DNA from: Octopus sinensis
Taxonomy: Eukaryota
DNA: 64,000 bases
NCBI RefSeq assembly: GCF_006345805.1
Contig: NC_043019.1
Coordinates: forward strand, 3,038,001 to 3,102,000
Direction of reading: 5' to 3'
This document shows positions 1,791-58,879 of this stretch, piece after piece. The notes beneath the pieces are model-generated. The model had not been told where the DNA came from and made no database searches. It saw nothing but the letters and a program-made list of their open reading frames with translations. The translations under genes and the position numbers were made by a program. How positions within the stretch are numbered: position 1 is the stretch's first letter; every line of letters begins with the position of its first letter.

Positions 1791-1826
1791 CAGACAAAAT
1801 TTCCACAGGCTCTATAGGAAGTGCAA
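1791..1826 (-). CDS. Microexon type A variant, 36 nt, VALPIEPVEILS (most 3' copy seen)
   Basis: ttttaacag|TTGCACTTCCTATAGAGCCTGTGGAAATTTTGTCTG|gtaag. Confidence 0.72.
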
Positions 1827-2590
1827 CTGTTAAAATATACATATATTCGTTTGTGAGTTAGAGTAAATATCTTTTGGTGAAGGATATATTTCAAAATAGA
1901 GTGAGCACAATATATGAATGATTATTCTATATTTTATAAAAATGCAATATAAATTAAGTGTAAAGCAATGCAGTATGTTGGTATTTTGCCAAAGAAGACA
2001 GATGATCATAAATTGATTTTACTTTTAAATGTATGAGTTAAAAAATTCTTTACATTATCAATAAAAAATCCAAATTTGCAGTAATTGTTGGTTTTTAGCC
2101 CCATATCATCTTTGAATAGGCAGGCCAACAGTCATTTTTCCCAGCTTTTACTTTGTATAAATGAGAGAGCCTGTTATAATCACTTGATCTGCTAGAAATA
2201 ACAGCCAAATTACTTTCAAGTTAAACCTCATTACTATGATTTGCAAGAATTTTGTTTTGGTGCAAAGGGTCATTTTTGATGTAATACCAATATTATGATA
2301 ATTACATATTTGACCTAAAAGGAATGAAACTCAAACTCTACCAACTTTCTATGTATGAAGTGAGCCTATATAATACCAGTGATATTAATTATCCAAGTAA
2401 AAAAAGGGAATTTACTATTTAAGGACTTGCAGATCAAATACACTACTTCTCAGTGCCTGGTATCAAACCAGTTTGTATTCTAGATGATATAAAAATATAA
2501 TACTGTATTTTATTAGTAATACTATACCCTGCTCTATCTATGAGTGCCTGTGTTTCTGACTTAGGAACTTTTAGACAACTATATCTTCCA

Positions 2591-2980
2591 TCTTGTTTCA
2601 GTCATTTAACTGTGGCCATGTTGAGGTACTACCTTGAAGAATTTTTAGTCGTTTGTATTGACTCCAAAACTTATTTTTTTAAAGCCTGGTACTCATTGCA
2701 TTGGTTTCTATTGCTAAACCACAAAGTTACAGGAACATAAATACACCAACACCAGTTGTCAAGTGCTGGTATAGGGACAAACACTGATACAAAGACATAC
2801 GTACACATAAATGTATATATATACTGGATGGACTTCTTACAGATTCTGTCTATGAAATCCACCCACAAGACTTGACTTGGCCTGAGGCTATAGTAGAAGA
2901 GATGTACCACATAGTAGAACTGAACCCAGAACCACATGGTTGGAAATCAAACTTCTTACTATACTACTATGTCTGCACCT
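2591..2980 (-). mobile_element. tRNA-derived SINE, family 1
   Basis: Homologous to 19463, 22040, 57177, 57883 and 62308; cttgtttcagtcattt..ctgtggccatg end and tRNA-like head. Confidence 0.8.
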
Positions 2981-3133
2981 AACTATATATATGTGTGTGT
3001 GTGAACATTTTAGGTAAGATATATCGAATTACATTCACTGCTGACAACAATAAAAGAACTATAACAAAATATTTGACTGAAACATAATATTTCTTTACAA
3101 AGGAGATAATGGTCTTTAAAATTTTCTTTTTTC

Positions 3134-3330
3134 TACTCTAGGCACAAGGCCCGAAATTTTTGAGGAGGAATCCAATCGATAAGATCAACCCCAGTACACA
3201 ACTGGCTCTTAATTTATCGACTCCAAAAGGATGAAAGGCAAAGTTGACCTCTGTGGAACTTGGACTCAGAATGTAAAGACAGACGAAATACCTCTAAGCA
3301 TTTTGTCTGGTGTGCTAATGTTTCTGCCAG
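3134..3330 (-). mobile_element. tRNA-derived SINE, family 2
   Basis: Core ttaatttatcgac...aaaggatgaaaggcaaagttgacc shared by at least five copies. Confidence 0.85.
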
Positions 3331-3831
3331 AGTTATGAATGCATAGCTAGTATTTAATAATATGGATAGCACATGATTTAATGAGGAAACTTTTGATTTT
3401 CTAGAGTAAATAGAGAGAAATATCCATGTCTAAATGTATGATTATTGTTACAAACATACACAAAAGCACACATTTAAACGAAGAGCTAATGAATATTTTT
3501 GCACTAAATTGGATGTAATATAGCGAAAATAAACTTTGTGCTATATATCAATAAAATGGTATGAAATAATGGATTTTTTAAGTGTATTTTAAATTCTTTA
3601 AATTCATTCTTATAAACAGGTATCAATAATTCCAAATAATTATTGCATAAAAATAATTACATAGCATGATCAGTGTCAATTTTGTTTTTATTTCACACTA
3701 TCATCCACAGGTTTTGTCCCAAACATTTGTTGGAAAACTACACTGATGTAATACTCTCAATAATTATGCAATTTCTTCATAGCATCTATGGGAAAGGTTT
3801 AGATTTAAGAAATCTACAAAATATTATACAC

Positions 3832-4235
3832 AGGTGAAGGAGCAACTGTGTGGCAAGAAGTTTGTTTCCGAACTACAGTTTAAGGTCCAACTCTATTGCA
3901 TGGCATCTTGGGCAAGTGCCTTCCACTGCAGCACCTCCGAGGTTGACCAAAGACTTGTGTGTGAATTTGGTAGATGGAACCTGAAAGAAGCTTACTATGT
4001 GTGCGTGTGTTACTGTTCCCTTGCCTTGACATTGCATGATAGTTGTAAATGCAAGTGGTGTCCTTCATTTCTAATCTAACATGAAACCATGTTTGGTCAT
4101 GAGGAATATGACTTACTTGGAAATAGATGAAGGTTGGAAACAGTAACAGCATACAGCCATAGAAAATCTACCTAAACAAATTTCATCTGGCCCATGCAAG
4201 CATGGAAAAGTGGACATCAAAGCAATAATGATGGT
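3832..4235 (+). mobile_element. SINE, family 1 head with family 4-like tail
   Basis: gtgtggcaagaagtttg head; catgcaagcatggaaaagtggac tail. Confidence 0.7.
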
Positions 4236-4478
4236 GAATTTCTCATACTCTCTTATATGATAACATACATGACTGACAATTTATACATGAAGGATGGCTA
4301 CACACACACACACAATTTTGGTGAAGGTGAAGTTATAAATATTAGATTTTCTTTCACAGGTAAAAGTAATATATATCATATATTAGAATATAACATACAC
4401 ATGAAAATACTGTCAAGTTAAATAGAGTTCAAGGTTAGAATTATTAGCTATATATTTTTCAAATGCTTATTTTCTTAC

Positions 4479-4511
4479 CAGTTGCAATTTCCACGGGTAT
4501 GACAGGGGGAG
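4479..4511 (-). CDS. Microexon type A variant, 33 nt, APPVIPVEIAT
   Basis: ttttaacag|CTCCCCCTGTCATACCCGTGGAAATTGCAACTG|gtaag; in-frame 6-nt deletion. Confidence 0.8.
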
Positions 4512-4820
4512 CTGTTAAAAATAGATTGTCGTATGTGTGAAGCAAAAGAAATATATTCTACAGGGTAAGTTTTAGAATAATTCAAAAAGGAAAAATTGAT
4601 GTATTTATAAAATATGTCATATTTGTATTTCTTACAAAATATAGAATGAAATATTTCATATAGAATTTTCTAAACGAAAGAAGGATTTTCAAGTGTCTGA
4701 GATATTGAAATTCTTAATATATAAAATAAGTATAATAAAAGTGAATAGCATAAATATATGATACATACATATGTGTATGCATGTGTGTAAATATATATAT
4801 GTGTGTGTGTGCATGTGTAA

Positions 4821-4854
<34 letters not shown>

Positions 4855-4858
<4 letters not shown>

Positions 4859-5148
4859 CATGGTTCAGTGGTTAGAGTGTCGGGCATGCAATCATGAGGT
4901 AGCAAGTTTGATTACTGGGCTGTGTTGTGTTCTTGAGCAAAACACTTTATTTCATGTTGCTCCAGTTCACTCTGCTGTAGAAATTAGTTGCAATATCACT
5001 GATGTTAATCTGTATCGGCCTTTGCCTTTCCCTTGGATAACATTGGTGGTACAGAGAGGGGAGGCTGGTATGCATGGGTGGTTGCTGGTCTTCCATAAAC
5101 AACCTTGCTCAGACTTGAATGGTAACGCTCTAGGTGCAATCTCAGTCA

Positions 5149-5150
<2 letters not shown>
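4855..5150 (+). mobile_element. tRNA-derived SINE, family 3
   Basis: tggttcagtggttagag A-box-like head; tgttcttgagcaaaacacttta core. Confidence 0.75.
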
Positions 5151-5208
<58 letters not shown>

Positions 5209-6224
5209 CATGTGTGTGTGTGTATGTATATATGTATGTATTATACCATGTATATACACACACATATATCATATGTCTGTATATGATATAAATATGGTTA
5301 TAGTTCATTCTCAATAAAACCCACCCACCTTAGTGAAAATCAATTCTAGTAAACCTGTATTTGTATATATTATATTACAAATGCACACACACACATACGC
5401 ACGCGCACACACACATGTATATATAAATATATACATTTCATATATATATTTTTTATATGCATAAAACATATATGTATATAATACATATATAAATATATAT
5501 GCTTGCATTTAAACATACATACATACATACATATATATAAAAAAATATAAAGGATATATATATATAAAAGAAAGATGTTGCTGAGTGCTTTTATGAAACA
5601 AGTTAATTCTAATATACAGCACATTTAACATTTTTTAATAAAAATGTTAAATATATTTACACAAAGTAAGTTCATAATCATCAGTGAGTTATTAATTTCC
5701 ATGTGTAACATGCTAAGAATTGTGATGCCCAGTTAGAACAATTAGTGATCAATACTGAATCTTAAACATGATGACTTTTGTGGGTAGAATTCTATGTTGA
5801 GTGTGAAAACAAAATGTTAAGTATGCATCTTATGATAAACAAAATTGTTCCTTGAGAACAAATAGCATGTATTCATATGTACTACTATATGTCTAGTAAA
5901 AATAACAATGGGTTGGACTTCACTTCATCATTGTAACTAAGTTATAAATGAAAGTAAAATACCAGTGTCAAGATAAGCATAAATGTGTAAGAAGCCCAAT
6001 GAACCAATGTCAGCAGAGGCAAACAGATGCTTATTGTTTCTGATTAAAATGATATTCAAATCTTGTATTTTAGACTTAATCCCTGAAGACAAAGGCAATC
6101 ATTATATACTTTAAATATTAACAGAGAAGTGATATTAAGAAAGTGTCTCTTATGTGTGAATTTTGCATTGTTTCATTATATTCCTACTCTGTATCTGTTA
6201 TATATGTTAAAATATGTTACACAT

Positions 6225-6719
6225 GAGCAGGGTCTGGAAGAGTAGAGACGTCAGAATCGCTGCCAAATGCAGATTGGTGAATGCAATTGTCTTCCCAATA
6301 GCAACATATGGATGCGAGACCTGGACACTAAAGGAAGCTGACCAGAAGAGGATTAATGCATTTGAGCTTTGGTGTTGGAGAAGACTTTTACGGATTCCAT
6401 GGACAGCGTGGCTCACCAATGGAGAAGTTCTTAAGCAGATCAGGCCAAAAATGTCACTAGAAGCTAGGATCACCAAGCATAGATTGGCATATTTTGGTCA
6501 TATTATGAGAAAATCCCTGGAGAAGGACATCATGCTTGGAATGGTCAGTGGCAAGAGAGGAAGAGGCCGACCAAGAACCCGCTGGCTTGACACCATCAAG
6601 AGTGATACCAGAATGGACATAGCCATTCTGAAAGAAGCAGCCCAGGATAGAACTGACTGGAGGACACTGATCCATGAAGTAACCGAGAGTCGACTTTGAC
6701 TGAGCAGATAGATAGGTAG
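6225..6719 (+). mobile_element. 5'-truncated RTE-clade LINE (C-terminal ORF fragment), 11-bp TSD
   Basis: Uninterrupted peptide with YGCETWT..AFELWCWRRLLRIPW..GRPRTRWLD typical of RTE/BovB-like ORF ends; (agat)n-like tail; atgttacacat at 6214-6224 and 6720-6730. Confidence 0.93.
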
Positions 6720-7739
6720 ATGTTACACATATTTTTACTTAATGACGTGTGTGTGTGCCACAAAAACTCTCCAAACTAGACACTAATAAGAAGACACTAT
6801 GAAGAAAAATCAACCAACACCAATGTAAGTGCTCCTTCAGAGACTATTTATAATGCAATGATATCATTAATCATATTTATTTAATTTTTATTATTCATGT
6901 TTTTGTTGTATTGTTAGGAAAATTCTATACAATTTCTACATACTCATAAGCTGCACATCAAGCACAGCCATTTCTCTGACAGTACGGTGTCCTGTTCTCT
7001 CCCATGCTTACTAAAATTTTAGTCTTTGCTGTGTTTACTTTGAGACCTCTCAATTCCAATTCTGCATCCATGTCTGGAATTGCTTTTCTAAATCTGCTAG
7101 ATTCAGGAACTAGGTCAACAGTATATAAATATTTTCATGAAAATTGGGTCTTACAATCCTGAGTTATAGCTTGAAGGATTATAGTGAAGAAAGGGAGCTG
7201 ACAACTGAGTCTTAATGAACTATCTGCTGAAGACATTACCTCACACATTGCTAAATTCCATATGGTGCATGTAATATAAACTATGATTGTGTACTGGGAT
7301 ATAACAAAGAGGCTAACAAATAATGCTTGTTGTCTTGGGCAAAATGAGCACAGAGGAAATAAATTTTTTCATCCCTTAGAGGCTCCATAGAAAGGATCAT
7401 TAACGCTCCTAAAGGATTATTATAAAATGTAGTTATTTATTAAGAAATATATTAATTTAAACATATATAACCTGTATTTAACATTGAACCAATATAAGAC
7501 AAAAACAATATGCATTGTGAGACAATACTAAAATTTAGAAAAATTAAGAATATGTAAAAGTGTAAAAATAACTTGAAGTAACATTGTAATTATAAATGTG
7601 TTATTAATTTATATGTGTAACATGCTGAAATTTGAGGTGATCAATTAGAATAATTAGTGATCAGTTTGAATACTGCTATCTTATATAGGGTTACATCTGT
7701 TTTGGTGAAGTAACTAATAAAAGTGAAAAAAAACATTTG

Positions 7740-8026
7740 ACTGAGGTTGTTGCCAGTGCCGCTGGACAGGCTCTTGTGCAGGGGGCACATAAAAAGCATC
7801 AATTGAGCATGGCCATTGCCAGTACCACCTAACTGGCACTCATGTCGGTGGCACGTAAAAAGCACCCACTACACTCTCAGAGTGGTTGGCGTTAGGAAGG
7901 GCATCCAGCTGTAGAAACTCTGCCAGATCAGACTGGAGTCTGGTGCAGCCATCTGGTTTTCTAGACCTCAGTCAAATTGTCCAACCCATGCTAGCATGGA
8001 AGCGGACGTTACATGATGATGATGAT
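7740..8026 (+). mobile_element. SINE/LINE-tail repeat, family 4
   Basis: Near-identical to 54102-54293; ends in (gat)n. Confidence 0.8.
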
Positions 8027-8319
8027 CCTTACATGTTTTTTCAAAAAATTAGAATATTAATTAAATATCTGTATGATAACTAGGTTTGTTAGATGAAAGG
8101 TATTAATATGTACAGCTACATGTCATCTAGAGAAAATATTACAGAATTGATGAAACTTCTTTCATTGTTGAAAAACAAGTATCAAAACAAATATGAAGTA
8201 ATGACATAGAAAAACTGGCGATATGGAATACTTTTTTGTTATATATCATACATAATGCTTTATAATATTTCAGCAATGTATTCATCAGTATCAAAATTAC
8301 TTAAGTATACTTCAACAGC

Positions 8320-8620
8320 AGGCATGTGGTTTAGTGGTCAGGGTATTCGGGCTCATGATCGTAAGGTTGTAAGTTTGATTCCCAGCAGTGTGTTGTGTCC
8401 TTGAGGAAGACACTTTACATCACATTGCTCCAGTTCACTCAGCTCACAAAAATCACTAGTACTTGTATTTCAAAGGGCTAGCCTTGTCAGATTCTGTGTC
8501 ATGCTTAATCTCCCTAAGAACTATGTTAAGAGTATGTGTGTCAGTGGTGTGCTCAACCACTTGCACATTAATTTCACAAGCAGGCTTTTCTGTTGATCAA
8601 ATCAGCTGGAACCTTCATCA
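8320..8620 (+). mobile_element. tRNA-derived SINE, family 3
   Basis: Homologous to 4855, 50660 and 60878. Confidence 0.75.
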
Positions 8621-8779
8621 GTTGCTTCAACAGTGATAACTTATTATCAGGTTTTATGGTATTATAAATATACTGGTAGAGTATAACATACATGTTAGTT
8701 ATTTCACAGGAAAGTGCTGGCAGGTTAAATTGTTCATGGTTAAGATTATTAGTAACATTTTTTAACTAGTTTTTCTTAC

Positions 8780-8818
8780 CAGTTTTAATTTCCACGGGTA
8801 TGACAGGGGAAGGTGCAG
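8780..8818 (-). CDS. Microexon type A, 39 nt, AAPSPVIPVEIKT
   Basis: ttttaacag acceptor, gtaag donor. Confidence 0.83.
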
Positions 8819-9359
8819 CTGTTAAAAATATATTTTCTTATATGTGAGATAAAAACAGGTATATTTTCTATGATCCATATTTTTTATACAGTTGAAAGGG
8901 AAATATTTTAACATGTTATCACTACAATAGTAATTCCTTTATTTAAAAAAAAATGAGGTCAGTTTCTAGCACTTTACAAAACATAAAAGTAAATATTCCA
9001 AATAGAATTTGTAATCATCAAAGCAGGTTTATCACATATTTCAAAACATTAGTTCCCTAAAAACATTGTTTGTAGTAATATTTGAACTCATGAAGATGTA
9101 GTTACAAATCTAAAAAGTATCATTATTTTTTGAATAAATTTTGTGGTAGAAATTGTAATGTAACCAGGCATGCTTTGGGGAGAGTGTTCTAGTGAATAAA
9201 TAAATAGACATAGAAGTAGTTTCAGGTATATTACAGGATATCATATAGTCTAACATTACACTATATAATTTAATTACATACTGCATATAATACAAGATTT
9301 ACAATATATAATTTAATATTACATTTAATTAATATATAATTTATATACTAAATTCTTAC

Positions 9360-9398
9360 CAGTTGCTAATTCCACAGGTTTAACTGGGGCTGGAGGAG
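9360..9398 (-). CDS. Microexon type B, 39 nt, APPAPVKPVELAT
   Basis: ttttcttag acceptor, gtaag donor. Confidence 0.85.
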
Positions 9399-10321
9399 CT
9401 AAGAAAATGATATGAAATATATGAGTTCACTGATATAACATTAACTAAGAATAATTGAAACACTTTATTTAGTGTTAGCACAATTAACAAAATACTTCAG
9501 ATAGAAGTGGAAATGAAACTGTTAGCTGTATAAAATGGAAACATATTGTATAATTCTCTCTAAGTGAATCTGGATAGTCTAAACCATGAGCCATTGGGTA
9601 GTTATCGACACAATTGAGTACTCAGTGTCATTAAGTTAATTGAGAAATGAAAAAAAAATGCAATATTATGCAAAAAAGAAAAATATGATACAGACAAAAA
9701 ATATTAATAATAATAACCTGATAATTACTTTATAATTAATAATTTTATATGCACATATTCTCTCAATATCAACTAAGAAATCTCCACAGATTGAAATAAT
9801 TAACTCAATACATAACTGAAATGTGTGTGTGTATACACACACACACACACAATCAAAAGTAAAAAAATCTATAAACACTTTCGGAAAGATTTTAATTCAA
9901 GATTAAGAGCACGAGAAGAAAATGCTATTGATCATATATGTTTTTAAAATCTTCTGTTTTCTTACATCTCCTACAGTGTTGATAGATTAAAAAAATTCAG
10001 TGGAAAGTTATTTTAAAGTATATGATAATTTAATGATAACATAATTTCAAATAAATGATAATAATATAGCATTAAACATATATATACATAAGGGATTGCT
10101 CAGAGAAAATGAAAAGTACACATATAGTTGAACTTCTGTTCATTATTGAAATTAAAATAAGTGTCCATATATGAAATATGAGGATGAATAACCTCAAGGA
10201 CAAAGTTGATTCCACCAATGTATTTCACCTGTAACAACTGAAGAGAATAGCATCTATGAAACAAGCTGTTACATAACTACTTGAAATATATATATATATC
10301 AAATGTATTTGAAAGTTGAAA

Positions 10322-10334
10322 AATTGGTGTTGTG

Positions 10335-10365
<31 letters not shown>

Positions 10366-10453
10366 CACAGAAACCAATTTTATATATATATATATATATA
10401 AAATTGGTTTCTGTGATATATATATATATATATATAAAATCACAACACCAATT
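10322..10453. repeat. Near-perfect palindrome of about 130 bp with (TA)n spacers
   Basis: aattggtgttgtgatttta(TA)n tcacagaaaccaatttta(TA)n taaaattggtttctgtga(TA)n taaaatcacaacaccaatt. Confidence 0.9.
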
Positions 10454-10454
10454 G

Positions 10455-10492
10455 TGCATTGAAAAGGGGCAATACCCCGAAACGCGTCTGTA
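10455..10492 (+). ncRNA. Minimal type I hammerhead-like ribozyme, U3-A8 core variant
   Basis: tgca-TTGAAAA-gggg-caata-cccc-GAA-acgcgt-C-tgta. Confidence 0.6.
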
Positions 10493-10723
10493 GCTGCCGG
10501 CCAAGTAGTGTGGAGCGACTGACCTCCCTTGTTCAAAGGTTATATGGATACAGTTTGTGTATCAAATAGCTAACTTAAGGCGATGGCCTCATGGAGCTAA
10601 TAAGCGGTCAGCTTTAATCTTATTTTTATAAGAATGCCATATTAGTATGGCGATAACTAATATTTTCCGGGAACGCTGCCGTTGTTCTCTTTTAGAGAGA
10701 CTTAGTAATTTTAATATTTCTAT

Positions 10724-10882
10724 TATATATATATATATATCACAGAAACCAATTTTATATATACATATATATATATACACATATATACACACACACATAT
10801 ATATATATATATATACACACACATATATATATACACACATATATATATATGCATATACACATATGTATATATATATATACAC

Positions 10883-10917
<35 letters not shown>

Positions 10918-10930
10918 TATATATATATAT

Positions 10931-10961
<31 letters not shown>

Positions 10962-11012
10962 CACACACACATATATATATATATACACACACACACATAT
11001 ATATATATATAT

Positions 11013-11061
<49 letters not shown>

Positions 11062-11302
11062 TATATATATACACACACACACATATATATATACACACAC
11101 ACACATATATATATATATACACACACATATATATATATATATACACACACACACATATATATATATATACACACACACACATATATATATATATACACAC
11201 ACATATATACACACACACACATATATATATACACACACACATATATATATATACACACACACACATATATATATATACACACACACACATATATATATAT
11301 AT

Positions 11303-11346
<44 letters not shown>

Positions 11347-11387
11347 GCACACACACATATACATATATATATATATATATATACATA
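10724..11387. repeat. Compound (TA)n(CA)n microsatellite, about 660 bp
   Basis: Seen directly; source of the YI/HT/VC ORFs. Confidence 0.97.
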
Positions 11388-13394
11388 CAGTAACCTTTAT
11401 GACAATTAAAATTTCCCAATGGGATGTATTAAACTCAGTACTGAAACCTAATAAATATTTAGACAGTCTCAAATAACAAAGACTGTTGAAGTGGTGAATT
11501 GAAACCAATCAACAATAAGATGGGTTAATGAAGAAGCTATTAAGAGACAAACATCTTTTTTATGGATTTAATGCAAGGTTTTGTGACAAGAAATTACTCT
11601 CCTGGCTGGTTTGATAATATATAAGTTCAAATATATTTGAATTTTACAACTTTTAAACAATATAATTAAGAAATATTAAATCATATTTTATCGCATTAAT
11701 TCTACAATTCATCCAAAAACATATATCATACTCTACAATATATTATATCAATATATGAATTATTTTGAAAATTATTTGAACACTATCTTAGTTTAAATAT
11801 ACAGTAAATGTATTCTGGAAAGATATATAAAATTAATTCCAAAGTAAATAAGTGACACAACGAATTCTGGAGTATATTTCCGTTTCCATAATAGGATCTT
11901 CTGTAAATATGTTCTAAATTGACTCTAAAATTATGCCTCACAACAGATTTCTACATTGCTAATATAATATGCATAATGAACTTGCCATCCGATTGATGAC
12001 TGGCATCTGTGCTAGTGGAGCGCTAAGAGCACCATCCGAGTATGATCGTTGCCAGAGCAGCTAACTGGCTTCCGTGCCAGTGGCATGTAAAAAGCGCCAT
12101 TCGAGTGTGATTTTTTAAGCATTACTCAGATGAATTCAAATAATGTACCATGTAATAATTTTATGAGGGTACCTCAGGGTATGACTAAGTACCAGTTTAT
12201 GAATTATTATCAGAGTGTAATTTTAAATGCATAATATGGTACTGTACCTAATATTGAAGCAATATGAAATTATAAAGGTATGCTGGGACAATAAATATGT
12301 TTATTCTATAAAATGTAAACAGTATAGTGACATGGAGCACCATTGTAATTATAGATGTGTTATTAATTCCTAGGTGCAACATGCTAAACATTGGAGTACA
12401 CAGTTAGGATAATTAATGATCGATATTGAATATGGCTATCTTATGTATGATTACTTTTATGGGATGAACTTTTGTAAAACAATTATCATTATGAGTGATA
12501 TCCAGACAACAGTGGAAAAGGTAAGCCGCTGGATTTGGTTAAAAAAGAGATGATGAGTGGCTAGAGGGCCAGTGCTGTCAAAAAAAAAAAAGGCTTTGAA
12601 ATGGTATTCTCTTCTCATGACCCCATAAATTCGTTAGCATTTGGTATGCAGAGCTTACAACTGGTAGCACTTGCATCTGCAAGTTATATGCAAAAAAAAT
12701 ATTATAAGAGAATATACCATTGATTAAGAAAAATACTAGTTTTAAATTACCAGTTACAGTGACAATTTTTATGTAACTAGTGTAAAATAATTAGAAAAAA
12801 TGAACTATCTTTTTATAAAAATTTGCATGAATTATGTCATTAGTGAATTAATGCAGTCTGGCCATAGATTACAATAAAACTTCTCTCAGGTGATGAGTAT
12901 AAGAAAATTAATGAGGTGATGAAGAAAATGAATATTAAGATTAAATGAATACCAAAGAATTTTCTGGTGATTAACATTTTTGAAGTTAATTTATTTAACA
13001 GAAATATTTTATTTAATTTAATTTAATAAATATAATGATTATTTACTAGATAAATACCAACTTCATTCAAGTAGTTTGTAATGTAATAATTTCATCATGT
13101 CACAGTAATAGTAGTATAATTGGCTGTAGATGATTATTATTAAAAAAGCAATTGAAACATATTATGTGGCAGTCAGTATTGACCAATACTATTTTGAATT
13201 AATAGATGATATGCATTCTGAGATAATAATGATATGTTGGAAAAAAGTAAAAATAAAATTAACATGTAAACAACATATCTTAACATGAAATATCATTATA
13301 GTTATAAGTGTATGATTAATTTCTGAGTGGTGTAACATGCTAAAATAAGAGGTGCTCAGTTAGAATAAGTTATTGATAATGAACTTTGATAGGT

Positions 13395-13400
<6 letters not shown>

Positions 13401-13446
<46 letters not shown>

Positions 13447-13564
13447 TATATACATATATATATATATATACACATGTATACATATATATATATACATATA
13501 TATACATATATATATACAAATATATGTACATATATATATGTATACACATATATATATATATACA

Positions 13565-13596
<32 letters not shown>

Positions 13597-13703
13597 CATA
13601 TATATATATGTATACACATACATATATATATATGTATACACATACATATATATATATGTATACATATATATATACACATATATATATACACATATATACA
13701 TAC

Positions 13704-13752
<49 letters not shown>
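13401..13752. repeat. (TA)n/TACA microsatellite
   Basis: Seen directly. Confidence 0.97.
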
Positions 13753-22251: not shown

Positions 22252-22291
<40 letters not shown>

Positions 22292-22305
22292 TGTATAGAC
22301 ATATA

Positions 22306-22351
<46 letters not shown>

Positions 22352-47052: not shown

Positions 47053-47091
47053 CAGCTGATAATTCTACAAATTTAACTGGAACTACAGGAG
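47053..47091 (-). CDS. Microexon type B, 39 nt, APVVPVKFVELSA
   Basis: ttttatag acceptor, gtgag donor; diverged B copy. Confidence 0.7.
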
Positions 47092-47906
47092 CTATAAAAT
47101 ATGAAATTTGACAATTCACTGACATAATAACATCAAATTACCACAGAATTATTAGAGACTGAGGATAAAATATATGCTTCTATATAATTAATACATTCCT
47201 TATCATACATAGTATCAATTAGAATAGCAACAAAAAAAAACTGCCTCGTTATTTACAAAAAAATAGGTGAAAAACAAAGAAGAATGCTATGGCTCTGATG
47301 ATAGCATTATTCTTTAAGGTCATTCAATTTTTCTCAGTTGATCCATTGATCAACTGAGTAAACCGATCAATGAATGAACCTATACTCTCAGAAACAGCTG
47401 TAAGTGGAATTTACTACAATAAAGGAATATGTAATGAACATTATTTATACCCTGTCTTGTATATCACTGTGTGTATAAAACCAGCTTACCTAGGAATACA
47501 ACCATGGGTTTACAAAAAAGAATAGTGATGAGCCTCAGACCCTCTCACAGGCATACATAGCATCCTTTATTAATCTAAAAAACTTTGTTAGCCTGCTGTA
47601 TTTGCATTAACAGAGAGCTTATAAAGTATTTTGCCTGGATTGATAAGCCCTTGTTAATAACTCTTTGTTATACATATCTATTTGGTATGAAAAGGTAATA
47701 GTGTAACTACGACTGTTATATAATTATCAACAATCTTAACCTGTATATAATGCATCTACCAACAAAGATTTTAATTTTTCAACCAGAAATATGAATGGTC
47801 CAATAAAACTAAATGGAGTATAAATTATCTATTTACCCTTTAAATTGGGTAACAATTTGCAATTTATTAATAATGAAAAACTCTCTGATAAGATCATGAC
47901 TATAAT

Positions 47907-48123
47907 CCTTTCTACTATAGGCACAAGACTGAAATTTATTGGGAGGGGGCCAGTCAATTAGATCAACCCAGTATGCAACTGGTACTTAATTTATTGACCT
48001 TGAAAGGATGAAAGGCAAAGTTGACCCTGGCAGAATCTGAACTCAGAATGTAAAGACAGATGAAATACTGCTAAGCATTTTGCCCAGCATGCTAATAATT
48101 CTGCCAGCTCACTGCCTTCTGAG
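47907..48123 (-). mobile_element. SINE, family 2, 12-bp TSD
   Basis: catgactataat on both flanks. Confidence 0.88.
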
Positions 48124-50659
48124 CATGACTATAATAGCAGATCTTATACATATTCCCCAATTATTTTAAAATTAAACCAAGTTAATTAAGTCATACACAC
48201 ACACTCACACACATATAAATTTAATTTTTATAGCTCTTTCAGAAATGGTTAGACCCAGGCAAGTATCAGTTGATAGGATTTGATACAGAAGTGTATGCAC
48301 TCATGTGTGTACATAAATTTCTCATACATGAGTGACAAATGTATGTATTGATTTTGTCAACCAAATTTTGTAGAAGAAATTTTATGCACAATCTATGAAG
48401 ATACTTTGATGATAATATATAGAATTACTAAAAGATTTGTTAAATTTTGGTAAATAAATAAATTTTGGTAAATAGATAATCTTTTGGTAAATAGGTAATC
48501 TTAATATTACAGATTATTATATATTATGAGAAGCACAACTAGCATCTAGTGTTAAATTTAGTTCATATCTAATTTTTTAAATATTCCTGTAACTGTTTCT
48601 GAAAGAATCATAAAATTATATTTGATATGAGTGTGTGTGTATGTATATAAGGTACATGACATCAATTTAGAATAATTGGGGAAGTCGTGTAAGATTTAAT
48701 ACAGTGACTATTTATGTTTTATCAGGGATTCTTTCACTATGTAAAAATTATGCATTATCATACAGTTTAAATATGATTTTTACGGTATTTAGTTTTATTT
48801 AAAATTAAAAATAAAATATTTAGGGATAAGTTTTTCTAAAGTTTAATAAATAATAAAATAGATTTTCATATTCTATTACACACAAAGAAGAATTAACTGT
48901 ATAGGGAAAAATGATAACTATACAAAAGTAATGTATTAGTTAATATAATCACTAAACTCATACAAATTGATATCTTCATAGGTTTAACTGTGAAGATATT
49001 AATTTGCGAAGGTATAAATCTTATATCACTTTCTTATGTTAATTAGTTAGTTTGAGAATTTGTATAACGTTTATCTTACTCACTGAATATCATGTATTTT
49101 ATCACTGATTTAAATTAATTATACTTATTAAGAACTTCACAAAAATATTGTACTTCATGAGACAATAACATTTTTTACAGTGATGCATAAAAGCTATTCA
49201 GGTCATACCAATAAATATAAATAGATCATGATAATAATAATGGTAAAAATTTTAAATGTGTTCAGAAGCAAGTTAATGATAAAATGGATAACATCTAAAA
49301 CCTGAGGAAATTATGAAATTCCATTTCCTCGATGGTAATTCAGTGTGCTCTAATTATAATACAGAATGAACCTTACATTAGATATAATTTTTTGTTTTGT
49401 TTTCTTAATAAAATAGTCAGAGTAGGAAGATCAGTACCAATGATCATTGAAAGCCTATCTCCTAGGGTAGTGAGAATGATGTGATTGATGTTCATTCTCA
49501 CCATAAACCAGTGACTGTAGAAAAATATGAATTGGGAGAGGATTGCATTATGGGGTGGAAAAGTAGTCAAAATGTTCAGTGTGACATCTGAAAGGTGACA
49601 CAACAGGGAGAACAGGAGAAGGAAAAAAGAGCAGGTGAAGTAAATATTGAAGCAGATTGACTAGTTCAGAGAAGCAGAGATTCTTGTAGCTAGGGTAGAA
49701 GAAATAGGGAGAAGAAACAGTAAATATGTAAGCATGTGACTGTAGAGAAAGGCTAGCTAAATATTTTCCAATCAATGGACTGGCCATTCTTTTAAGATCT
49801 CAGATTTTAATGTGTGTAGCAAAAGTACCATATCTTGTATGTTATCAGTAATCTAATGTGAGTCTTACTTTAATAGACATAGGAGCGAAAATGATTTAGA
49901 AGAATAGGGACTTCTTGGAAACTATGAACAGTTGAAGTGATGTAAATGATAAATAGCAGAAACAAAATTTGTCACAGAAGTAGAAGTATGATCTTAAATC
50001 TATTTCAAAATAGTATAAAATATTTGCCACAACTTTTAGCAATTAACAGATATACAACAGGCATAATCATATAATGTGTAATGTATTAATTTTATAATAA
50101 TGACACACAAGTATACAAGATTTTAAAACAGGTTGTTACTCATGTGTTATATAGATGAGAGTAAAATCTTTCCCTTGAAAAATGGTCAGTTTCTCAGGTA
50201 ATTTTTCCACCAGGAAACCAGGAAAAGTCATAGTCAGCAATGCAAGTTAACCCCTTCTGATGTGATCTGTGTTTGCAGTATTATAACATCTTAAAGCTTT
50301 GTTACACATACAACTTCAGGCTAATGACAGTTACAAACTGCTAACTTTCAATTGCAATTTTCTTATACATAATTTAAATACAAATTAAAGGTTCTCTAGA
50401 TAGCCTATTATGTTTTTAGTTTTGTTACAGGCAATCAATCATTCTCTCCTGTGACTTTTACATCCTCACTATGCATTTTACAAATGGCTAATTCATATTT
50501 TTACAACATATGCTAGTCATTTGTTTTTCTGCAGCAATAAATAATATAATCTTATTAAAACATCATCACCATTTCTGACATTTTCTACAAAATGCACATG
50601 TTAAAATAACCCAAAGACTTCTTCATATATGTAGAAATAATGTATCAGGTAATAAAAAT

Positions 50660-51016
50660 GTGGCACTGTGTTGGTTATGACAACGAGGGTTCCAGATGAT
50701 CTGATCAATGGAACAGCTTGCTCGTGAAATTAATGTGCAAGTGTACCCTTAACGTAGTTCTTGGGGAGATTCGGCATGACACAGAGAATGACAAGGCTGG
50801 CCCTTTGAAATGCAGGTACAAAAGAAACAGGAAGAAAAAGTGAGAAAAAATTGTGGTGAAAAAGTACAGCAGGGTTTTCCACCACCCCTTGCCAGAGACT
50901 CATGGAGCTTTAGGTGTTTTCGCTCAATAAACACTCACAACGCCTGGTCTGGGAATCGAAACCATGATGCTACAACCATGAGTCGACTGCTCTAACCATT
51001 CAGCCATTGTGCCTCC
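50660..51016 (-). mobile_element. SINE, family 3-related
   Basis: Shares ctgatcaa..gaacagc..gtgaaattaatgtgcaagt block with 60878; tRNA-like end. Confidence 0.75.
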
Positions 51017-53380
51017 ACATAAGGTTATAGGTTCATACCAAGCAAATTATGAAATTACATTTTATAACTTTGGCGAAACTATCAAATATATATACATATT
51101 ATGCAGCAATATATTAATTTACAAAACAAATAATGAAAGAGGACATAAACATGACAATACAAACATGAAATGCTGATTTAGAAAACTGATATTATGAAGA
51201 GTCAGCTGTAATAGTCACTTATACATCATGCTTCCTTATATCCCAAAAATTGTTTTATGTGTATATTTTTTAAACATACTCATCATTATAAGAATTAACA
51301 AATTCAGCAGAGATATTTTATTAATAACATATATACTTAATTATAAATAACGATATGCTTCAATGAAAATATTAGGAATATATTTCTGGTTATTAGTATA
51401 TAAAATGCACAGGAAAGTAGTTAAGTTAAATTATATTCATAGTTAAAATTAATAACTATATTTTTGTCAAATATTAATTTATTGCCAGTTATGAATAAAA
51501 GAAGTATAACATTAAATTATATAAATAGAAATTTCCCCAAAGAATGAGCTTCTAATTAAATTTTGCTAAAAATTTATTAAGATGCTAAAATAATTCAAAA
51601 AAATTATTTTTATGATAAACTGTTATGTAAATTTTACAATATCATATGTAATGGTAATTTGGTTACTGATTGCATGCAAAGCAAATATTTTAATTAATAT
51701 TTATTTCATATTAAATCAATCTATCAATTATTCTCAGCTTTATGTAGAGGAGCTATGGAAATTATATCCTTGCTTATGATTTGATCAGCAATTCAATGAT
51801 CTCATTTTAACATAATTAAGGAAGTTTTACAATATTGACTTTACATTGATAAATCACTTTCTCATAAGAAAACCAAATGGCATGGTAGTATATATATTTA
51901 TACCACCTTAGTAAGTAATTTCTATAATTTTATTTCCATTAATTTTTAGTAAATTATATTATCTAATAATTCAGTTTCAGTGGTAATTAGGTACATTTTT
52001 AAACAGGATTCTGAAAATATAAATCTATTTATATTTATAACTATAATCTAGTAATTTTCTGAGTCTAAAGAAATAAAATAATTTTGAGATGACATGAATC
52101 TAATTACTAATTGACAATTTAACCTAGAGAAAAATACAACATTCTGAACTGATGTACTATGTCACTATAGATTCAACAACACCATTATATGGCGTGAAAA
52201 ATACATGGAATTTATTTTATCATTATGAAGAATTATAATTGTTATTAAACATGCATTATTAATTTTCACATGTCACCATCTATGATTAGAAGTGTCAAGT
52301 TAAATGAAAAGAAGTCTGCATGAGATGTTGAAACCACATATGTTGTACCTTGGATGAGGATAAGTTTTAATATAGCTAAACTCTAACAGAAGATAATTTA
52401 TGCAGATAATTAACAGACATTGATAAATCTTTAAATCAATGACTCTTTTTAGTGTTTTTCTTTGTAATGTCATGCCAGGAGAAAGGGGTATTACCTATGG
52501 CCCTCTGAAACTGACAAGTCTGATGCTGTTTATGTTGCACTTAAAATGTAGAAAGTGAACAACTGCAGGAAAATATAATTAGGAAAAGAATTTCAGAATA
52601 CCAACATTCTTAGACAGAAGAGTTGTTACAGAAAGTCCCAGTATCAGCACCTGTAAATCCCTCTCCAAGGTGTAAACCTGAGCTAGGTAGGTGTGTGTGT
52701 GTGTGTGTAAGACTATATTGTCTAAATGAAAAGTACATCCATAGCTTTACACCTGTGTCATTGCAGAAATTGCAGTCAGAATACAAAGAACCAGAATGAT
52801 ACTGCAAGATATCCTATTCAGCAATCTTACAGTTAAACCAATCCATCACCTTATGTACAATTTCTAGATGAGTATCAACTCTTTGTTTATGCATATTAAA
52901 AATGCATAGAAATCAATGACTAACATGAGGTGAAAACAATGTTTTTTTCCTTTATGGTACAAAAATAACATTGAAATATATGAAAATATGTTCTGTTGGT
53001 GATTTCAAAACAATGAATATACACATATACATTCATGCCTTATATTAGCTTTATACATTATCAAGCTAACTCCAGCAATTGTAAATATGCTTTGTCTATA
53101 AGTACAGTAGATTTTCTAAATATTAATACAATTCATGATTATGAATTAGTTTATCAACAACTGAAGTTGTCAGCTATTATATCAGGCACAATGTAGGAAG
53201 AAATTTTGAAGTGAAAGATGATATACAGCTTATGTTTTATAAAAATCATAAGCTACATTAACTAATATCTAGGACGAAAGATAAATATATTTCTTAAAAT
53301 ATTTAGTAAATAATAATAGTGTTAGCATTAATTGATAAGTATGTTTTAATTTTATAATTAGTTAATTACTAAATTCTTAC

Positions 53381-53413
53381 CAGTTGATACTTCCACGCGT
53401 GGTGCTGGTGGCC
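53381..53413 (-). CDS. Microexon, 33 nt, GPPAPRVEVST
   Basis: ttttctcag|GGCCACCAGCACCACGCGTGGAAGTATCAACTG|gtaag. Confidence 0.8.
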
Positions 53414-54101
53414 CTGAGAAAATTATATTATCTAATATATTAATAAATAAAAATGCATAATAACATAGTATCATTTGTACATAATTTTTTCCAACTTTGA
53501 CAGTACCTAAGCTACTATATAGAATAAAAATATCTTTTATCATCTTCCTGTTGTATTTATGAATATCAGTATTACAGACAATTCGTTGGCAAACAAAATT
53601 AGTCAACACAAATTTCAATGCGATACCATAATTATGTCAACAATTTACTTTATAATATATGTTGCTTTTTACTGTTTCTCATTACTTTGGTAGAATCTTG
53701 TAATATCCAAATGAATAAAGCACTCATTCAAAGATATTCAAACTAAAGCAGAAAAGATACTTTTCAACACTAGTAAATATGTCTTAGCCAGTGATTGGGA
53801 TCAAACCTGCTGTAATAATAATTAGCTCAAATAAAGATGGACAAAATAATTATCTGATGGGACAATAACATTTCATCTTCTAGACTAAGAATTTAGACTG
53901 GCGTGTGTCACATTAACATAGCTTTCATTAAAGACACTTCCAAACTTTACTTTAAATATTCCAAGATCATTGAGTACCAGTAAAAAAATAGCCTGTTATA
54001 AACATATTCAATTCGAACCAAAGTTGTGACACCTGTGTAAGATGTGTAAATTATTCTTTAGTTAAATGCTATTGAAAGCAAATCCACAATTCATTTCTTT
54101 A

Positions 54102-54293
54102 GTGCAGGTGGCACGTAAAAAGCACCCACTACACTCTCAGAGTGGTTGGTGTTAGGAAGAGCATCCAGCTGTAGAAACTCTGCCAGATCAAGACTGGAGC
54201 CTGGTGTAGCCATCTGGTTGCCAGCCCTCAGTCAAAACCGTCCAACCCATGCTAGCATGGAAAACAGACGTTAAATGATGATGATGATGATGA
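54102..54293 (+). mobile_element. SINE/LINE-tail repeat, family 4
   Basis: Homologous to 7847-8026. Confidence 0.8.
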
Positions 54294-56349
54294 TTACCAG
54301 GCATCGTTGGATATAAAGTTATTTTCATATCATCATATTATCATGAAAATATTAAAAGTGAAGTGACAATTATATTATCTAATTGAGCATAGTAACTAAG
54401 TAAATACCGAGACATATTGCTAAAATCAATTCTTTTTATTAAAATAAAAATAAAATTTAATTTTTAAAATCAGAATAAAAATTTGAAGTAAACTTGCATG
54501 TATTATCAAATATTTGTTAGACAGTAACATAATAATTGTGTAATGCATTAAATGATTGAATGACATAGAGGTTTAGTGTGATATGTAACAAACAAGGTTT
54601 AGTGTGATATATAATAAACAAGGTTTGAGTCAATATAATAATATCAAAGAATAAGTAACAACTGCCAGGTGAGTAAAAACAAACAAACATTATCTTCTCT
54701 TAGTTTTTAGTGGTGGCTGTTACATTTCACTTAAACTTTTAATGTATCTGAACAAAGAATAAATTGTTCATATATTGATTTCAGTCTGTTATTTTAGAAT
54801 TGGAAAATAGATGTGAATAAATTTCAGTAACATGCTGGAACTGGAAGTGACCAGTTAATATAATTAGTGACTTATAATTAAAGATAGTATCCCTATAAAC
54901 AACAATAACCTAATTTAACAATAAACAATTAATTGTTAACAGTTGATGATTTCTGTGGAGTTTTTCTAAAAGTTTTCTAAAAATTGTTGCTAATTACACC
55001 ATATTTTGTAAACTAGCAAAATATATTGAGCATAAAGTATTAATCAGCTAAAAGACTAGCCAAGTACAAATGACAATTTTTTTTTTTTTTTTTTTTTTGC
55101 AGATTAACAATGTATAACTGCAAGTCTATCGTAAATTATATTGAATAGATAGATAACAATATTCTAACACTTATCTTATTTTATGATATATTTAAATAAA
55201 CAATTAGGCAATTTATAATAGAAATAGGATGAGAAGAATGTAACTTTATGGGAGGATATAGTTAATAACATAGTATGATAACAAGGATGGTATGTTTAGA
55301 GCACCGATACAACTAAATGGAATACAAATAGATGCATCAAAATATTTACTCCAACACTCAGCAAAGCATAACACTCAGCCATTTTACATCATAAAAATAA
55401 TCCTAACATAAGAACAAGGCTTAGTTTTGCAGGGCGGCATATTTAGTCAGTTATATTGTTCATGCCTCTATCCAGTGCTTTATTTTACCACCTCTGGAAT
55501 AAGGGAAGTTAAACTGATACTAATAACAGTGATAGCTATCTCATTTCAGGTTATCAAATATACATGTTGGTTTTAAGAATTAAGTGAACTTGTTGCCTAC
55601 AGTACCAGCACACAAATGTGCCCAAATAGTTAGGGAGTTTGCTCTTCATTTAGGAGATCTCAGTTTTATTCCTACAACATCTCACCCTGAGAAAGCACTA
55701 AATTGAAGGTGATATAAGCTTTGTTAGTGAAACTGTGTAGATGAAAAACTGTCTGGAAGCCCAGTTTTAATTGTATCTGTAATTCAAAGGGCCAACTCTG
55801 TCATGCAGATTCTCCCAAAATTTTACATTAAGAATACACATATCTGTAAAATACTCAGCCATTTACATGTTAATGAATAGGCTGTTTCATTGATCAAACA
55901 ATCAGAACACAATTGGAACATGATAGAGATCCATTTGAATTATATTACACATAGAAAAGAAAGTATGATGAAAAAATTATAGAGCTATTTTTAACATTTC
56001 CAATACCTTCATCTTTTACAATAAAACTACCTTTTATCTATAAAACTTCTTTCTAGCAAAGTATTCATGTAATATACACTGAATTCAGAGAATATAATGT
56101 TAATCATTGCAAGTATCATGCATATATAATATGACAGGAATTAGAAAAATTACAACTCTATTCCTCATTTAATGTACCTTTCACAATATTGGCAACAAAA
56201 TGAAATTTGAACTCAGAACAATGATGAATGAAATTTTGCTAAGTATTTTGTCTGGTGTGCTAATGATCCTGCCAGTTCACTACCTTAACCTAGCAAATAT
56301 CAATACTTTGATTTGGTATTCAGTGCCATTTAGTGTGTGTGTGTGTGTT

Positions 56350-56387
<38 letters not shown>

Positions 56388-56954
56388 TATTCTGTCTTTT
56401 CTATTCAACTTGTACCTTAACCTCACAACTCACTTCCCAGATAAGGGAGCTACTTATTCACCTCTTCAACAATATATCTGTTCCTGTCTCTTCATCATAC
56501 TTTCATATCCCTCAATGACATATCCTAGTCAGCTAAGGGGTCTTGTCTTGCAGGTACTTGGTGACCTCTAAGTGATGATGCCACATAAAAGAAGTCTGTG
56601 AAGTGATTGGCGTTAGGAAGGGCATCCCAGATGTAGCAATCATACTTAAACAGACACTGGAGCTTGGTACAACCCCTCTGGCCCATCAGTGCATGCTGAC
56701 TGATCCAACTCAAGCCAGAACAGAAAAGTGGGATAAGGAGTAAGAGATGGGGGCAGAGGAGATTAGAGATAGGCAATAACTGTAAATATTGGGTAGGGAT
56801 GAAGGGTATATACAAGTATTGTTTAAAGAATATAACTATATAATCTGTGGTTAAATGCAGCAGACATTTACTGTTAACTGTTGAGAAAAAAAAGTGCATC
56901 CACAGGTGAAATTCAGACTAACAAGAGATTAACTCAACAAAAATAAGACATATA

Positions 56955-57152
56955 CAAGATGGGCCAAAACTTGTGCACCAAGACATTTTATTTGTATTAT
57001 GTTATGATTATTATTCATGTTATCATGTACATGCAGGTGTGTATTCATTATTATTTTATTTACTTTATACAAATTTAGAAAAACTGAAGCATGTCTTTGA
57101 CATCTCTGGAGCGTATTGAACTTATTTTGTTCGTGACTTTTGGCCTATACTG
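56955..57152. mobile_element. Possible Tc1/mariner-type MITE
   Basis: Degenerate TIRs ta-caagatgggccaaaa / ttttggcctatactg. Confidence 0.35.
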
Positions 57153-57176
57153 TGTGTGTGTATATATATATATACT

Positions 57177-57430
57177 TTTCTTTTACTTGTTTTAGTCATT
57201 TGACTGCAGCCACACAGGAGCACAGCCTTGAAGGATTTTAGTCGAACAAATCATGCCCCAGGACTTATATTTTTAAGCCTAGTACTTATTCTATCAGTCT
57301 TGTCTGCCAAACTGCTAAGTTACGGACACATAAACACACCAACATCAGTTGTCAAGCAGTGATGGGGTGAGAAACAAAGACACACACACACACAGATATA
57401 TATATGACAGGCTTCTTTCAGTTTCCGTCT
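57177..57430 (-). mobile_element. SINE, family 1, truncated at the inverted repeat
   Basis: Family homology stops at gtttccgtct. Confidence 0.8.
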
Positions 57431-57432
57431 CT

Positions 57433-57688
57433 AGAAAATAGAGATAATTAAATTAACAATTATTTATTAATTACAAAAATTGGACATCATCTCTGACAGC
57501 TGTTTTGATTCAAGATTTTAGAAATTAATAAGTATAATTTAAAACATTTTAAAGTTGAATCTCATAGGAGTGGAAAAAGATATACTCTTATACCAATTAA
57601 TTTCTAAAGTCTTGAATCGAAACAGCTGTCAGAGATGATGTCCAATTTTTATAATTAATAAATAATTATTAATTTATCTCTATTTTCT
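57433..57688. repeat. Long inverted repeat (arms about 95 bp, spacer about 66 bp)
   Basis: 57433-57529 is the reverse complement of 57596-57688 with few differences. Confidence 0.9.
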
Positions 57689-57830
57689 TATTTTTCTAAA
57701 ATATATATAAACCCCAGTTTATCTAATTACCTTACAGTTGAATATTAAATGTAATAGTCAATACTTTTTGTAATAGGTAATAAACCAATATATTCACTGG
57801 ATTTTATTATCCCTTATTCAGGTTTTTATC

Positions 57831-57882
<52 letters not shown>

Positions 57883-57884
<2 letters not shown>

Positions 57885-58080
57885 TTTATCTTTTACTCGT
57901 TTCAGTCATTAGACTGTGGCTATGCTGGGGCACCACCTTGAGGAACTTTAGTCAAATGAATTGACCCCAGTACTTTTATTTTTTAAGCTTGATGTTTATT
58001 CTATCAGACTTTTTTTTTTGCCAAACTGCTAAGTTAAGGGAACTTAAACACACCAACACTGGTTATCAGGCAGTGGGAAT
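57883..58080 (-). mobile_element. SINE, family 1, partial
   Basis: Family homology. Confidence 0.75.
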
Positions 58081-58843
58081 CTGAACACATCTATTCATTT
58101 ATCTGACTGCTGTTGTTTTACATCATTGGATAATTGCATGTTTGAAAACGCATCACCTAAAGGGAAAAGGAGTTCTTTGATGACAAAAACAGCGATCACA
58201 TATTCACAATTGAATCTGCCAAAGCCTACTAAGAATGAATAGAAATGTTACTGTTATATATAAAATTATTATCTTTAAAGCATTTGCTTATAATATCAAT
58301 ACTTTAAATTTGCACTATTTCTAATATTGCTGGTAAGATTGTTAATTTGAATATGTGCATACAAATTAGAATTCTTATCCAGAGTAAAATGCAGTTTTCA
58401 ATACAAATAATGGAATTAACTTGCTAGAGATGTTATTTGGAACAGATTAAAATCAACATTTGGAAAACTGATATTTAATCTGTAAAACAATTTATAAAAA
58501 AATTAAACAAAACTGTTGTTCTACTTGATCTGAAACCAGACATTATTTTGTTATTGGTTTTTCAAAGATGCAAACTTCTACAAATTCAACGATAATTATA
58601 AAAATTAGATCATTTTGCTTGTTAATATAATTCTTTTCACTTTTGAGAAAACACTATAATCATATGAACCCTATAAATATATTTCAACAAATATTCAGAA
58701 ACTAGAATATTCTTGCCTTCTCATCACAAAATGAAAATATCAGAAACCAGAAAAGAAATGAAGAAATATTATTCTTTTAAGTTCTGTTAGTGTCCACATG
58801 CTGAAAATTATGATTAAATCCATGATTAATAATGTTTGCTTAC

Positions 58844-58879
58844 CAGTTGAAATTACTTTTGGAGGTGTTGTAGGAGGAG
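58844..58879 (-). CDS. Microexon, 36 nt, APPTTPPKVIST (most 5' copy seen)
   Basis: ttttgacag|CTCCTCCTACAACACCTCCAAAAGTAATTTCAACTG|gtaag. Confidence 0.8.

Follow-up and report, generated by a model that had tools for sequence, protein, structure and literature searches.

We report that a stretch of 64,000 nucleotides (nt) from Octopus sinensis contains, between positions 1791 and 58879, an array of very short minus-strand units that are real, symmetric coding exons of a cephalopod gene, LOC115223644. The stretch (hereafter, the window) corresponds to C23:3,038,001-3,102,000 of the 2.72-Gb genome, C23 being its contig, and its numbering is extended to negative values and to values above 64,000 for positions outside it. 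The array probably makes up most of a Pro/Thr-rich linker of ~390 residues between two runs of VWA domains and serves as an extended spacer with O-linked glycans in a protein secreted into the matrix. It has grown, furthermore, via tandem duplication of a two-exon cassette together with its introns, resulting in 12 pairs of exons, as is shown from the DNA itself.

The window and 100 kb on each side (264 kb in total) were scanned with a splice-site matrix; 25 of the units had served as its training set and therefore score by construction. The scan produced 32 rows for the minus strand, as against none for the plus strand. Inside the window, the rows are 26 intact units and a 38-nt unit (34169-34132) with a 1-nt deletion, and in a 28th unit (37443-37405) the donor GT is changed to AT. 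The intact units are 24, 33, 36 or 39 nt each, with AG before and GT after all of them, and sum to 981 nt; only the phase-1 frame is open across the 26 units, many stops being found in the other two frames. The intact units have strong donors of uniform sequence, 25 of the 26 being GTAAG. When the splice sites were not required, a profile search detected 15 units of one type (A), 12 of a second type (B), and one further strong unit, 25 of these 28 being intact; one of the 28, an A-type copy just outside the window (-2959..-2997), is the third decayed unit, interrupted by a stop in frame and followed by a weak donor. The translation of 25 exons has no Cys, Trp or Tyr, and the linker is composed of 25% Pro and 15% Ser plus Thr (47/319 residues) with a net charge of -4. 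A preliminary description of this DNA had counted 28 homologous minus-strand units, 26 of them with intact AG/GT sites and phase 1-1 symmetry, had given a stop-free total of 981 nt and a peptide devoid of Cys, Trp and Tyr, and had pointed out that subsets of exons can be skipped without a frameshift. These statements are borne out by the matrix scan and the profile search, by the single open frame, by the translation, and by the phase 1-1 symmetry of all units, respectively. The VWA exon boundaries that were read in the host gene are, nonetheless, phase 1-1 as well, and the symmetry therefore does not single the array out.

The preliminary description had also called the array hidden and expected standard annotation to miss or truncate it, which did not hold: RefSeq models of two Octopus species contain it. 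Indeed, 25 of the 26 exons match residues 1051-1369 of RefSeq XP_036368516.1 (LOC115223644; 4624 residues) exactly, when the exon at 20580 is taken in its 42-nt form; this model leaves out a 24-nt unit and the broken units. The 42-nt form, in which the acceptor lies 3 nt upstream (TAGCAG), is used by both the RefSeq and the Octopus bimaculoides models, and XP_036368516.1 includes 15- and 18-nt exons in addition to this acceptor shift. Because such tiny exons and the acceptor shift are common to both Octopus models, transcript support behind XP_036368516.1 is suggested. In all, the array accounts for 319/4624 residues, or ~7% of the annotated protein.

As to RNA, none of the runs that contain the stretch is recorded as RNA. 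Reads of 4 of 24 runs (presumed RNA) were aligned to 36600-54500, where dispersed repeats filled the tables of junctions and loose ends. Run X10 covers 40135 and 40489, which are inside two exons, and does not cover the intron positions 40108-40111 or 40537-40549; at least part of these intron positions is covered in the other three runs, and X16, X18 and X19 cover introns like DNA. The coverage in X10 gives weak support to spliced RNA and bears nothing on skipping. It is very improbable that the units are non-coding, duplicated pieces of intron strung together by a gene predictor. Such an origin would agree with the finding that no junction at any array exon is among the joints listed (15 of 620) for the four runs in 36600-54500, and also with flanking introns that are, close in, nearly as conserved as the exons. 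Nevertheless, AG/GT is preserved in 26 units, whose lengths are multiples of 3 and whose open frame is in the phase of the VWA exons; these units recur in the models of two species, along with the 3-nt acceptor shift and the exons of 15 and 18 nt; and the coverage in run X10 includes two exons but not the adjoining intron.

The positions of the individual exons, all on the minus strand, rest mainly on the splice-matrix scan and on the match between the phase-1 translation and the RefSeq residues. First in the window is a 36-nt phase 1-1 exon (58844..58879) with weak kinship to the A and B units (RefSeq residues 1051-1062), followed by a 33-nt B-related exon (53381..53413) that is present in both the RefSeq and O. 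bimaculoides models. The 12 pairs then follow, each given here as its B-type and A-type unit: pair 1 at 47053..47091 (39 nt; donor GTGAGA) and 46486..46524 (39 nt); pair 2 at 43611..43649 and 43007..43045; and pair 3 at 40474..40512 and 40131..40169, where the X10 contigs cover the exons but not the intron 25 and 20 nt away, respectively. Pair 4 consists of the decayed B-type unit with the donor changed to AT (37405..37443) and an A-type unit cut to 24 nt with intact AG/GT and frame (37049..37072), both of which are outside the RefSeq model. In pair 5, the decayed 38-nt B-type unit (34132..34169) would shift the frame and is also outside the RefSeq model, and the A-type exon is at 33785..33823. 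Pairs 6 and 7 are at 31858..31896 and 31482..31520, and at 29014..29052 and 28399..28437. From the B-type exon of pair 8 (24138..24176; A-type, 23774..23812), a one-to-one alignment with O. bimaculoides starts and continues to the 3' end. Pair 9 is composed of a B-type exon missing from one of the two O. bimaculoides models (20853..20891) and the A-type exon with the tandem acceptor TAGCAG (20542..20583), which starts at 20580 in its 39-nt form and at 20583 in the 42-nt form of RefSeq. Pair 10 is at 17796..17834 and 17426..17464, pair 11 at 15611..15649 and 15182..15220, and pair 12 at 9360..9398 and 8780..8818. Two unpaired exons close the array in the window, namely a 33-nt A-type exon (4479..4511) and a 36-nt A-related exon (1791..1826), after which the model continues with 15-nt and 42-nt linker exons and a VWA exon ~13 kb past the window start.

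Several further details of the array region were noticed. A 24-nt B-like remnant at 48964-48987 (minus strand) has AG and GT and is open in phase 1; it is absent from the RefSeq model and from the earlier count. Another AG lies 18 nt upstream of the acceptor in the A types, and 9 nt inside the exon in many of the B types; the frame is kept in either case, and 57-nt and 30-nt forms are thus possible. The long intron between pairs 7 and 8 contains an open reading frame (25683-25934, minus strand) resembling, by eye, a fragment of a Tc1/mariner transposase. Long compound TA/CA microsatellites, which are ordinary for this genome, occur in introns at 10756-11389, 13397-13757 and 28660-28940.

The window (1..64000) is wholly inside LOC115223644 on the minus strand, with VWA exons at positions 87.8-109.7 kb on its upstream side and from -8.2 to -100 kb on its downstream side. 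Pfam VWA was detected in all three flanking exons tested (E = 5e-46 to 2e-39), and XP_036368516.1 has ~20 VWA hits with a 397-residue gap between them that is 41% Pro plus Thr. Upstream on the same strand, eight single-exon VWA domains lie in 3-kb tandem units with 97-99.5% identity; this region (87,780-112,268) holds eight to nine units, each with a VWA exon and two Pro/Thr-rich linker exons, and the frameshifts in several of them look like long-read errors and may be errors of the assembly. Downstream of the array are ~18 more VWA domains. Three VWA exons there (-8163, -33680 and -71728) have open frames yet are skipped by XP_036368516.1, the first two being included in the O. bimaculoides models; the one at -8163 is devoid of DxSxS and is cut short by an internal donor. 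DxSxS is present in 15 of the 17 motif matches of XP_036368516.1, and we take it to be the signature of the metal ion-dependent adhesion site (MIDAS). No hydrophobic span is seen in the last 300 residues of the octopus protein, and a protein search with this tail region returned VWA/EGF clusters only. The model is 5'-incomplete; it starts inside a VWA domain and is without a 5' cluster on the opposite strand, which is described below. Judging from its sequence, the host belongs to the giant mollusc proteins with multiple VWA and EGF domains and has no collagen helix.

The preliminary description had proposed that the flanking domains would tell the two sides apart, vWF-type domains indicating a secreted protein, and the VWA and EGF flanks place the array on the secreted side. 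Of its two suggestions, an elastic titin-like spacer or an O-glycosylated stalk, the Pro/Thr-rich spacer stands, while a titin-like nature is contradicted by the VWA/EGF flanks and a dense mucin by the Ser plus Thr content (47/319). An intracellular PEVK spring as in titin is, in fact, extremely improbable. The array shares with it one repeat per symmetric exon and a richness in Pro, Val, Glu and Lys, and the 26 residues of a B+A pair are near the length of the PPAK repeat; these four residues, however, amount to 54% compared with ~70% in titin PEVK, the flanks are VWA and Cys-rich EGF domains, the Pfam lists of the mollusc relatives have no Ig/FN3 domains, and the relatives start with signal-peptide-like stretches. 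Both titin PEVK and the micro-exon genes of Schistosoma likewise have one short repeat per symmetric exon and can change in length without harm to the frame, but the octopus host is a probably extracellular VWA protein in which the array is a minor part. Most of the coding sequence of a Schistosoma micro-exon gene is symmetric microexons, and with 319/4624 residues in the array the host does not belong to this class. Neither is the array a dense PTS domain of mucin, where Ser plus Thr exceed ~40%, as compared with 15% here. It may nonetheless work like PEVK or a mucin stalk by analogy, despite falling outside both classes. Neural, eMIC-dependent microexons have UGC close to the 3' splice site, according to PMC8797185; within 30 nt upstream of the acceptors, UGC was found in 0 of the 26 exons, and this class was rejected.

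The O. bimaculoides protein XP_052831912.1 carries the database name "collagen alpha-3(VI) chain" by similarity only. Tandem VWA domains are indeed shared with collagen VI alpha-3, and the VWA plus EGF tail recalls VWA2 and matrilins. Collagen VI was rejected, however, as there is no Gly-X-Y run: none of the five proteins tested, including XP_036368516.1 and XP_052831912.1 (both 5'-incomplete), has a run of five Gly-X-Y, and the collagen and Kunitz Pfam families of the vertebrate matches are absent from the mollusc relatives. The VWA matrix proteins of pearl oyster, as described in PMC5597905, are likewise collagen-related VWA proteins without a Gly-X-Y helix, but they are shell proteins, some with chitin-binding domains, unlike the octopus gene.

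In the spacer reading, the two VWA blocks would be held apart by the linker in an extracellular matrix or gel. Secretion would be expected from the signal-like N-termini of three bivalve relatives and from the octopus tail without a membrane span, and the VWA domains would provide metal-dependent binding. The linker would take the form of a polyproline-II-like rod or a coil; with a polyproline-II rise of 3.1 angstrom per residue, 390 residues could span up to ~120 nm. N-acetylgalactosamine (GalNAc) would be attached to Thr at the exon ends with the next exon supplying Pro at +3, and Pro is in fact at +3 for 23 of the 47 Ser/Thr residues of the linker. A GalNAc transferase of snail favours Pro at -3, -1, +1 and +3, according to PMC4245494. 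According to PMC5597905, furthermore, VWA proteins that lack the triple helix belong to the matrix in molluscs, where they are proposed to form cross-linked networks, and RNA interference of six such proteins disorders nacre.

Several points weigh against the spacer reading. Leu at -1 blocks the snail GalNAc transferase (PMC4245494), which hits the first Thr of the B-type ends. The nacre VWA proteins may not be orthologous to the octopus gene, and the octopus is shell-less. Among paralogous copies, the ratio of nonsynonymous to synonymous differences (pN/pS) amounts to 0.85 in the A type (11 units) and 1.41 in the B type (10 units), with few sites in each, and amino-acid identity between the copies is thus not visibly under purifying selection. 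As already mentioned, the 15 joints listed include no junction of an array exon. Finally, no signal-peptide, VWA or N-terminal exon was found in C23:2,510,001-2,612,000, the ~100 kb that precede the first VWA exon of the 5' cluster.

The core of the array is a two-exon cassette, B then A, with the two exons 311-615 nt apart and 1.8-5.8 kb between the 12 pairs. The introns were duplicated along with the exons; identity among the copies is 86-87% in exons, 76-82% in the adjacent 40 nt, and 52-64% with many gaps at 100-200 nt away. Because an A exon and a B exon were 69% alike when compared, the cassette itself likely came from a single exon. Frame and splice sites appear to be better kept than the amino acids. 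Three copies have decayed (37405..37443, 34132..34169 and -2959..-2997), and the frame survives such decay, since a phase 1-1 exon that has died can simply be left out. Why there are so many units is a separate question, and the two explanations considered for it, near-neutral growth and splice tuning, are not exclusive of the spacer reading.

Near-neutral growth, which we consider a tentative possibility, supposes that a flexible linker suffices, that the cassette multiplies by unequal crossing-over, and that selection acts only on frame, splice sites and composition. The pN/pS near 1 among copies is consistent with this, and so are the three decayed copies and the 24-nt copy outside the model, the 12 pairs versus 7 in O. 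bimaculoides, and the amplification of the VWA exons in tandem units (97-99.5% identical), which suggests that the locus is prone to duplication. On the other hand, conservation between the two Octopus species is as high in orthologous units as in VWA domains: the 3' part of the array aligns one-to-one with XP_052831912.1 with 145/154 residues identical, and two VWA domains with 366/389 (94% and 94%). Also, 25 of the 28 strongly homologous units of the profile search are intact, for which a crude neutral simulation gave P = 0.06 to 0.00001 depending on the assumed rates.

XP_052831912.1, which is 5'-incomplete and skips near-identical tandem VWA units, has the orthologous shorter array of 7 pairs. 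The second O. bimaculoides model is identical to it over the aligned array except that one pair (26 residues) and one B unit (13 residues) are missing; this difference could be due to skipping or to assembly gaps. Tissues or stages might take different subsets of the 13-residue and VWA exons and thereby regulate spacer length as titin PEVK does, which we regard as somewhat unlikely. All units are frame-safe, alternative acceptors in frame are available to the A types (+18 nt) and the B types (-9 nt), three intact-looking VWA exons are left out of XP_036368516.1, and annotated isoforms in scallop, apple snail and Mya differ by whole segments. Nevertheless, XP_036368516.1 has no isoform label and takes in 25 of the 26 intact units; the donors are uniformly strong, with UGC at none of the 26 acceptors; the two O. 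bimaculoides models are perhaps from different assemblies whose gaps could explain their difference; and the scallop isoforms, each minus one segment, may reflect enumeration of models from short reads. What is certain is that the length of the spacer is set by duplication and loss between species, and some exon skipping would probably occur within an animal.

The array motif was found in 3 of ~230 proteins compared, namely the two Octopus RefSeq proteins and the second O. bimaculoides model; squid and cuttlefish were barely sampled. When proteins of 30-2542 residues were compared with the array region, one match emerged among 8000 scored candidates; low complexity and the ceiling on candidates weaken this evidence on squid and cuttlefish. 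Giant VWA/EGF relatives are present in bivalves and gastropods, namely scallop LOC110464458, Pecten LOC117317678, Pomacea XP_025106489, Mya LOC128240703, Potamilus CHS0354_012500 and Batillaria BaRGS_00006381. The bivalve and gastropod relatives have 13-24 VWA domains by profile (10 in the Dreissena model), Pro/Thr-rich linkers between them, and a VWA/EGF tail; signal-peptide-like N-termini were judged by eye in three of the bivalve relatives. Their linkers are at most ~160 residues, compared with ~390 in the octopus. Compared with the longest isoform of scallop LOC110464458, six of seven RefSeq isoforms lack one Pro/Thr-rich linker segment and one of seven lacks a whole VWA module, and RefSeq isoforms of the apple snail and Mya also differ by whole linker or domain segments. 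The relatives in Mya, Ruditapes and Dreissena differ from the octopus gene in having runs of PKD domains between the VWA blocks, and entire PKD units distinguish the Mya isoforms from one another. The same gene thus seems to have gained different inserts in different molluscs.

The octopus gene appears, furthermore, to be larger than its model. The N-terminal VWA domain of XP_052831912.1 matches C23:2,649,150 on the plus strand (92%); the linker that follows corresponds to an 18-nt exon at C23:2,660,083, and the array comes directly after it in this model. Five VWA exons that stand singly, a degenerate copy, and nine tandem units of 1.85 kb form a plus-strand cluster at C23:2,612,353-2,684,909, the likely 5' half of the gene, 350-430 kb distant on the opposite strand. 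The 1.85-kb units end at a gap (2,685,556), as do the 3-kb units of the array half (3,150,269), and a further gap is at 2,935,855; no VWA was found past gap 2,685,556 or gap 3,150,269 in the 35 and 50 kb examined. An unplaced contig (C2632) has two more variants of the 3-kb-type unit (~91%). Domains 2-4 of the Potamilus relative match the first three plus-strand VWA exons in order. A search of representative proteins with the VWA of the 5' cluster returned no full-length cephalopod protein; in a fragment from Argonauta, the first two VWA exons of the 5' cluster are joined. The halves would be brought together by one inversion of the block between gaps, and they are quite probably a single gene of ~43 VWA exons, encoding roughly 9,000-10,000 residues; a mis-oriented scaffold block is the likely cause. 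A real inversion, or two paralogues, is possible instead of an assembly error, the 250 kb in between being mostly outside the stretches examined.

In the searchable papers, subscription papers and supplementary tables being outside the scope, none was found that names any of eleven accessions of the gene and its relatives; titles and the starts of abstracts on cephalopod microexons held nothing on this gene, and no paper on octopus mucus proteomics or on symmetric-exon VWA proteins was found. The array is, therefore, undescribed in searchable papers, yet annotated in RefSeq.

In conclusion, the exons are already in RefSeq and repeat linkers made from duplicated symmetric exons are a familiar design, so that the importance of the array is modest. 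The gene is apparently far larger than any model, and its two halves point to an orientation error of the scaffold that can be corrected. It is conceivable but rather doubtful that a gene of ~43 VWA exons and 9,000-10,000 residues, composed of phase 1-1 cassettes and split by an assembly inversion, is spliced in tissues into subsets of VWA and spacer exons and dials the distance between the binding blocks. If so, the mesh size and stiffness of gels in skin, suckers, cartilage or mucus would be set by splicing, as an extracellular counterpart of the tuning of titin PEVK. In any event, coding microexons arise and die in this array and have one-to-one orthologues in O. bimaculoides, which makes the tuning of spacer length in a mollusc matrix protein testable.

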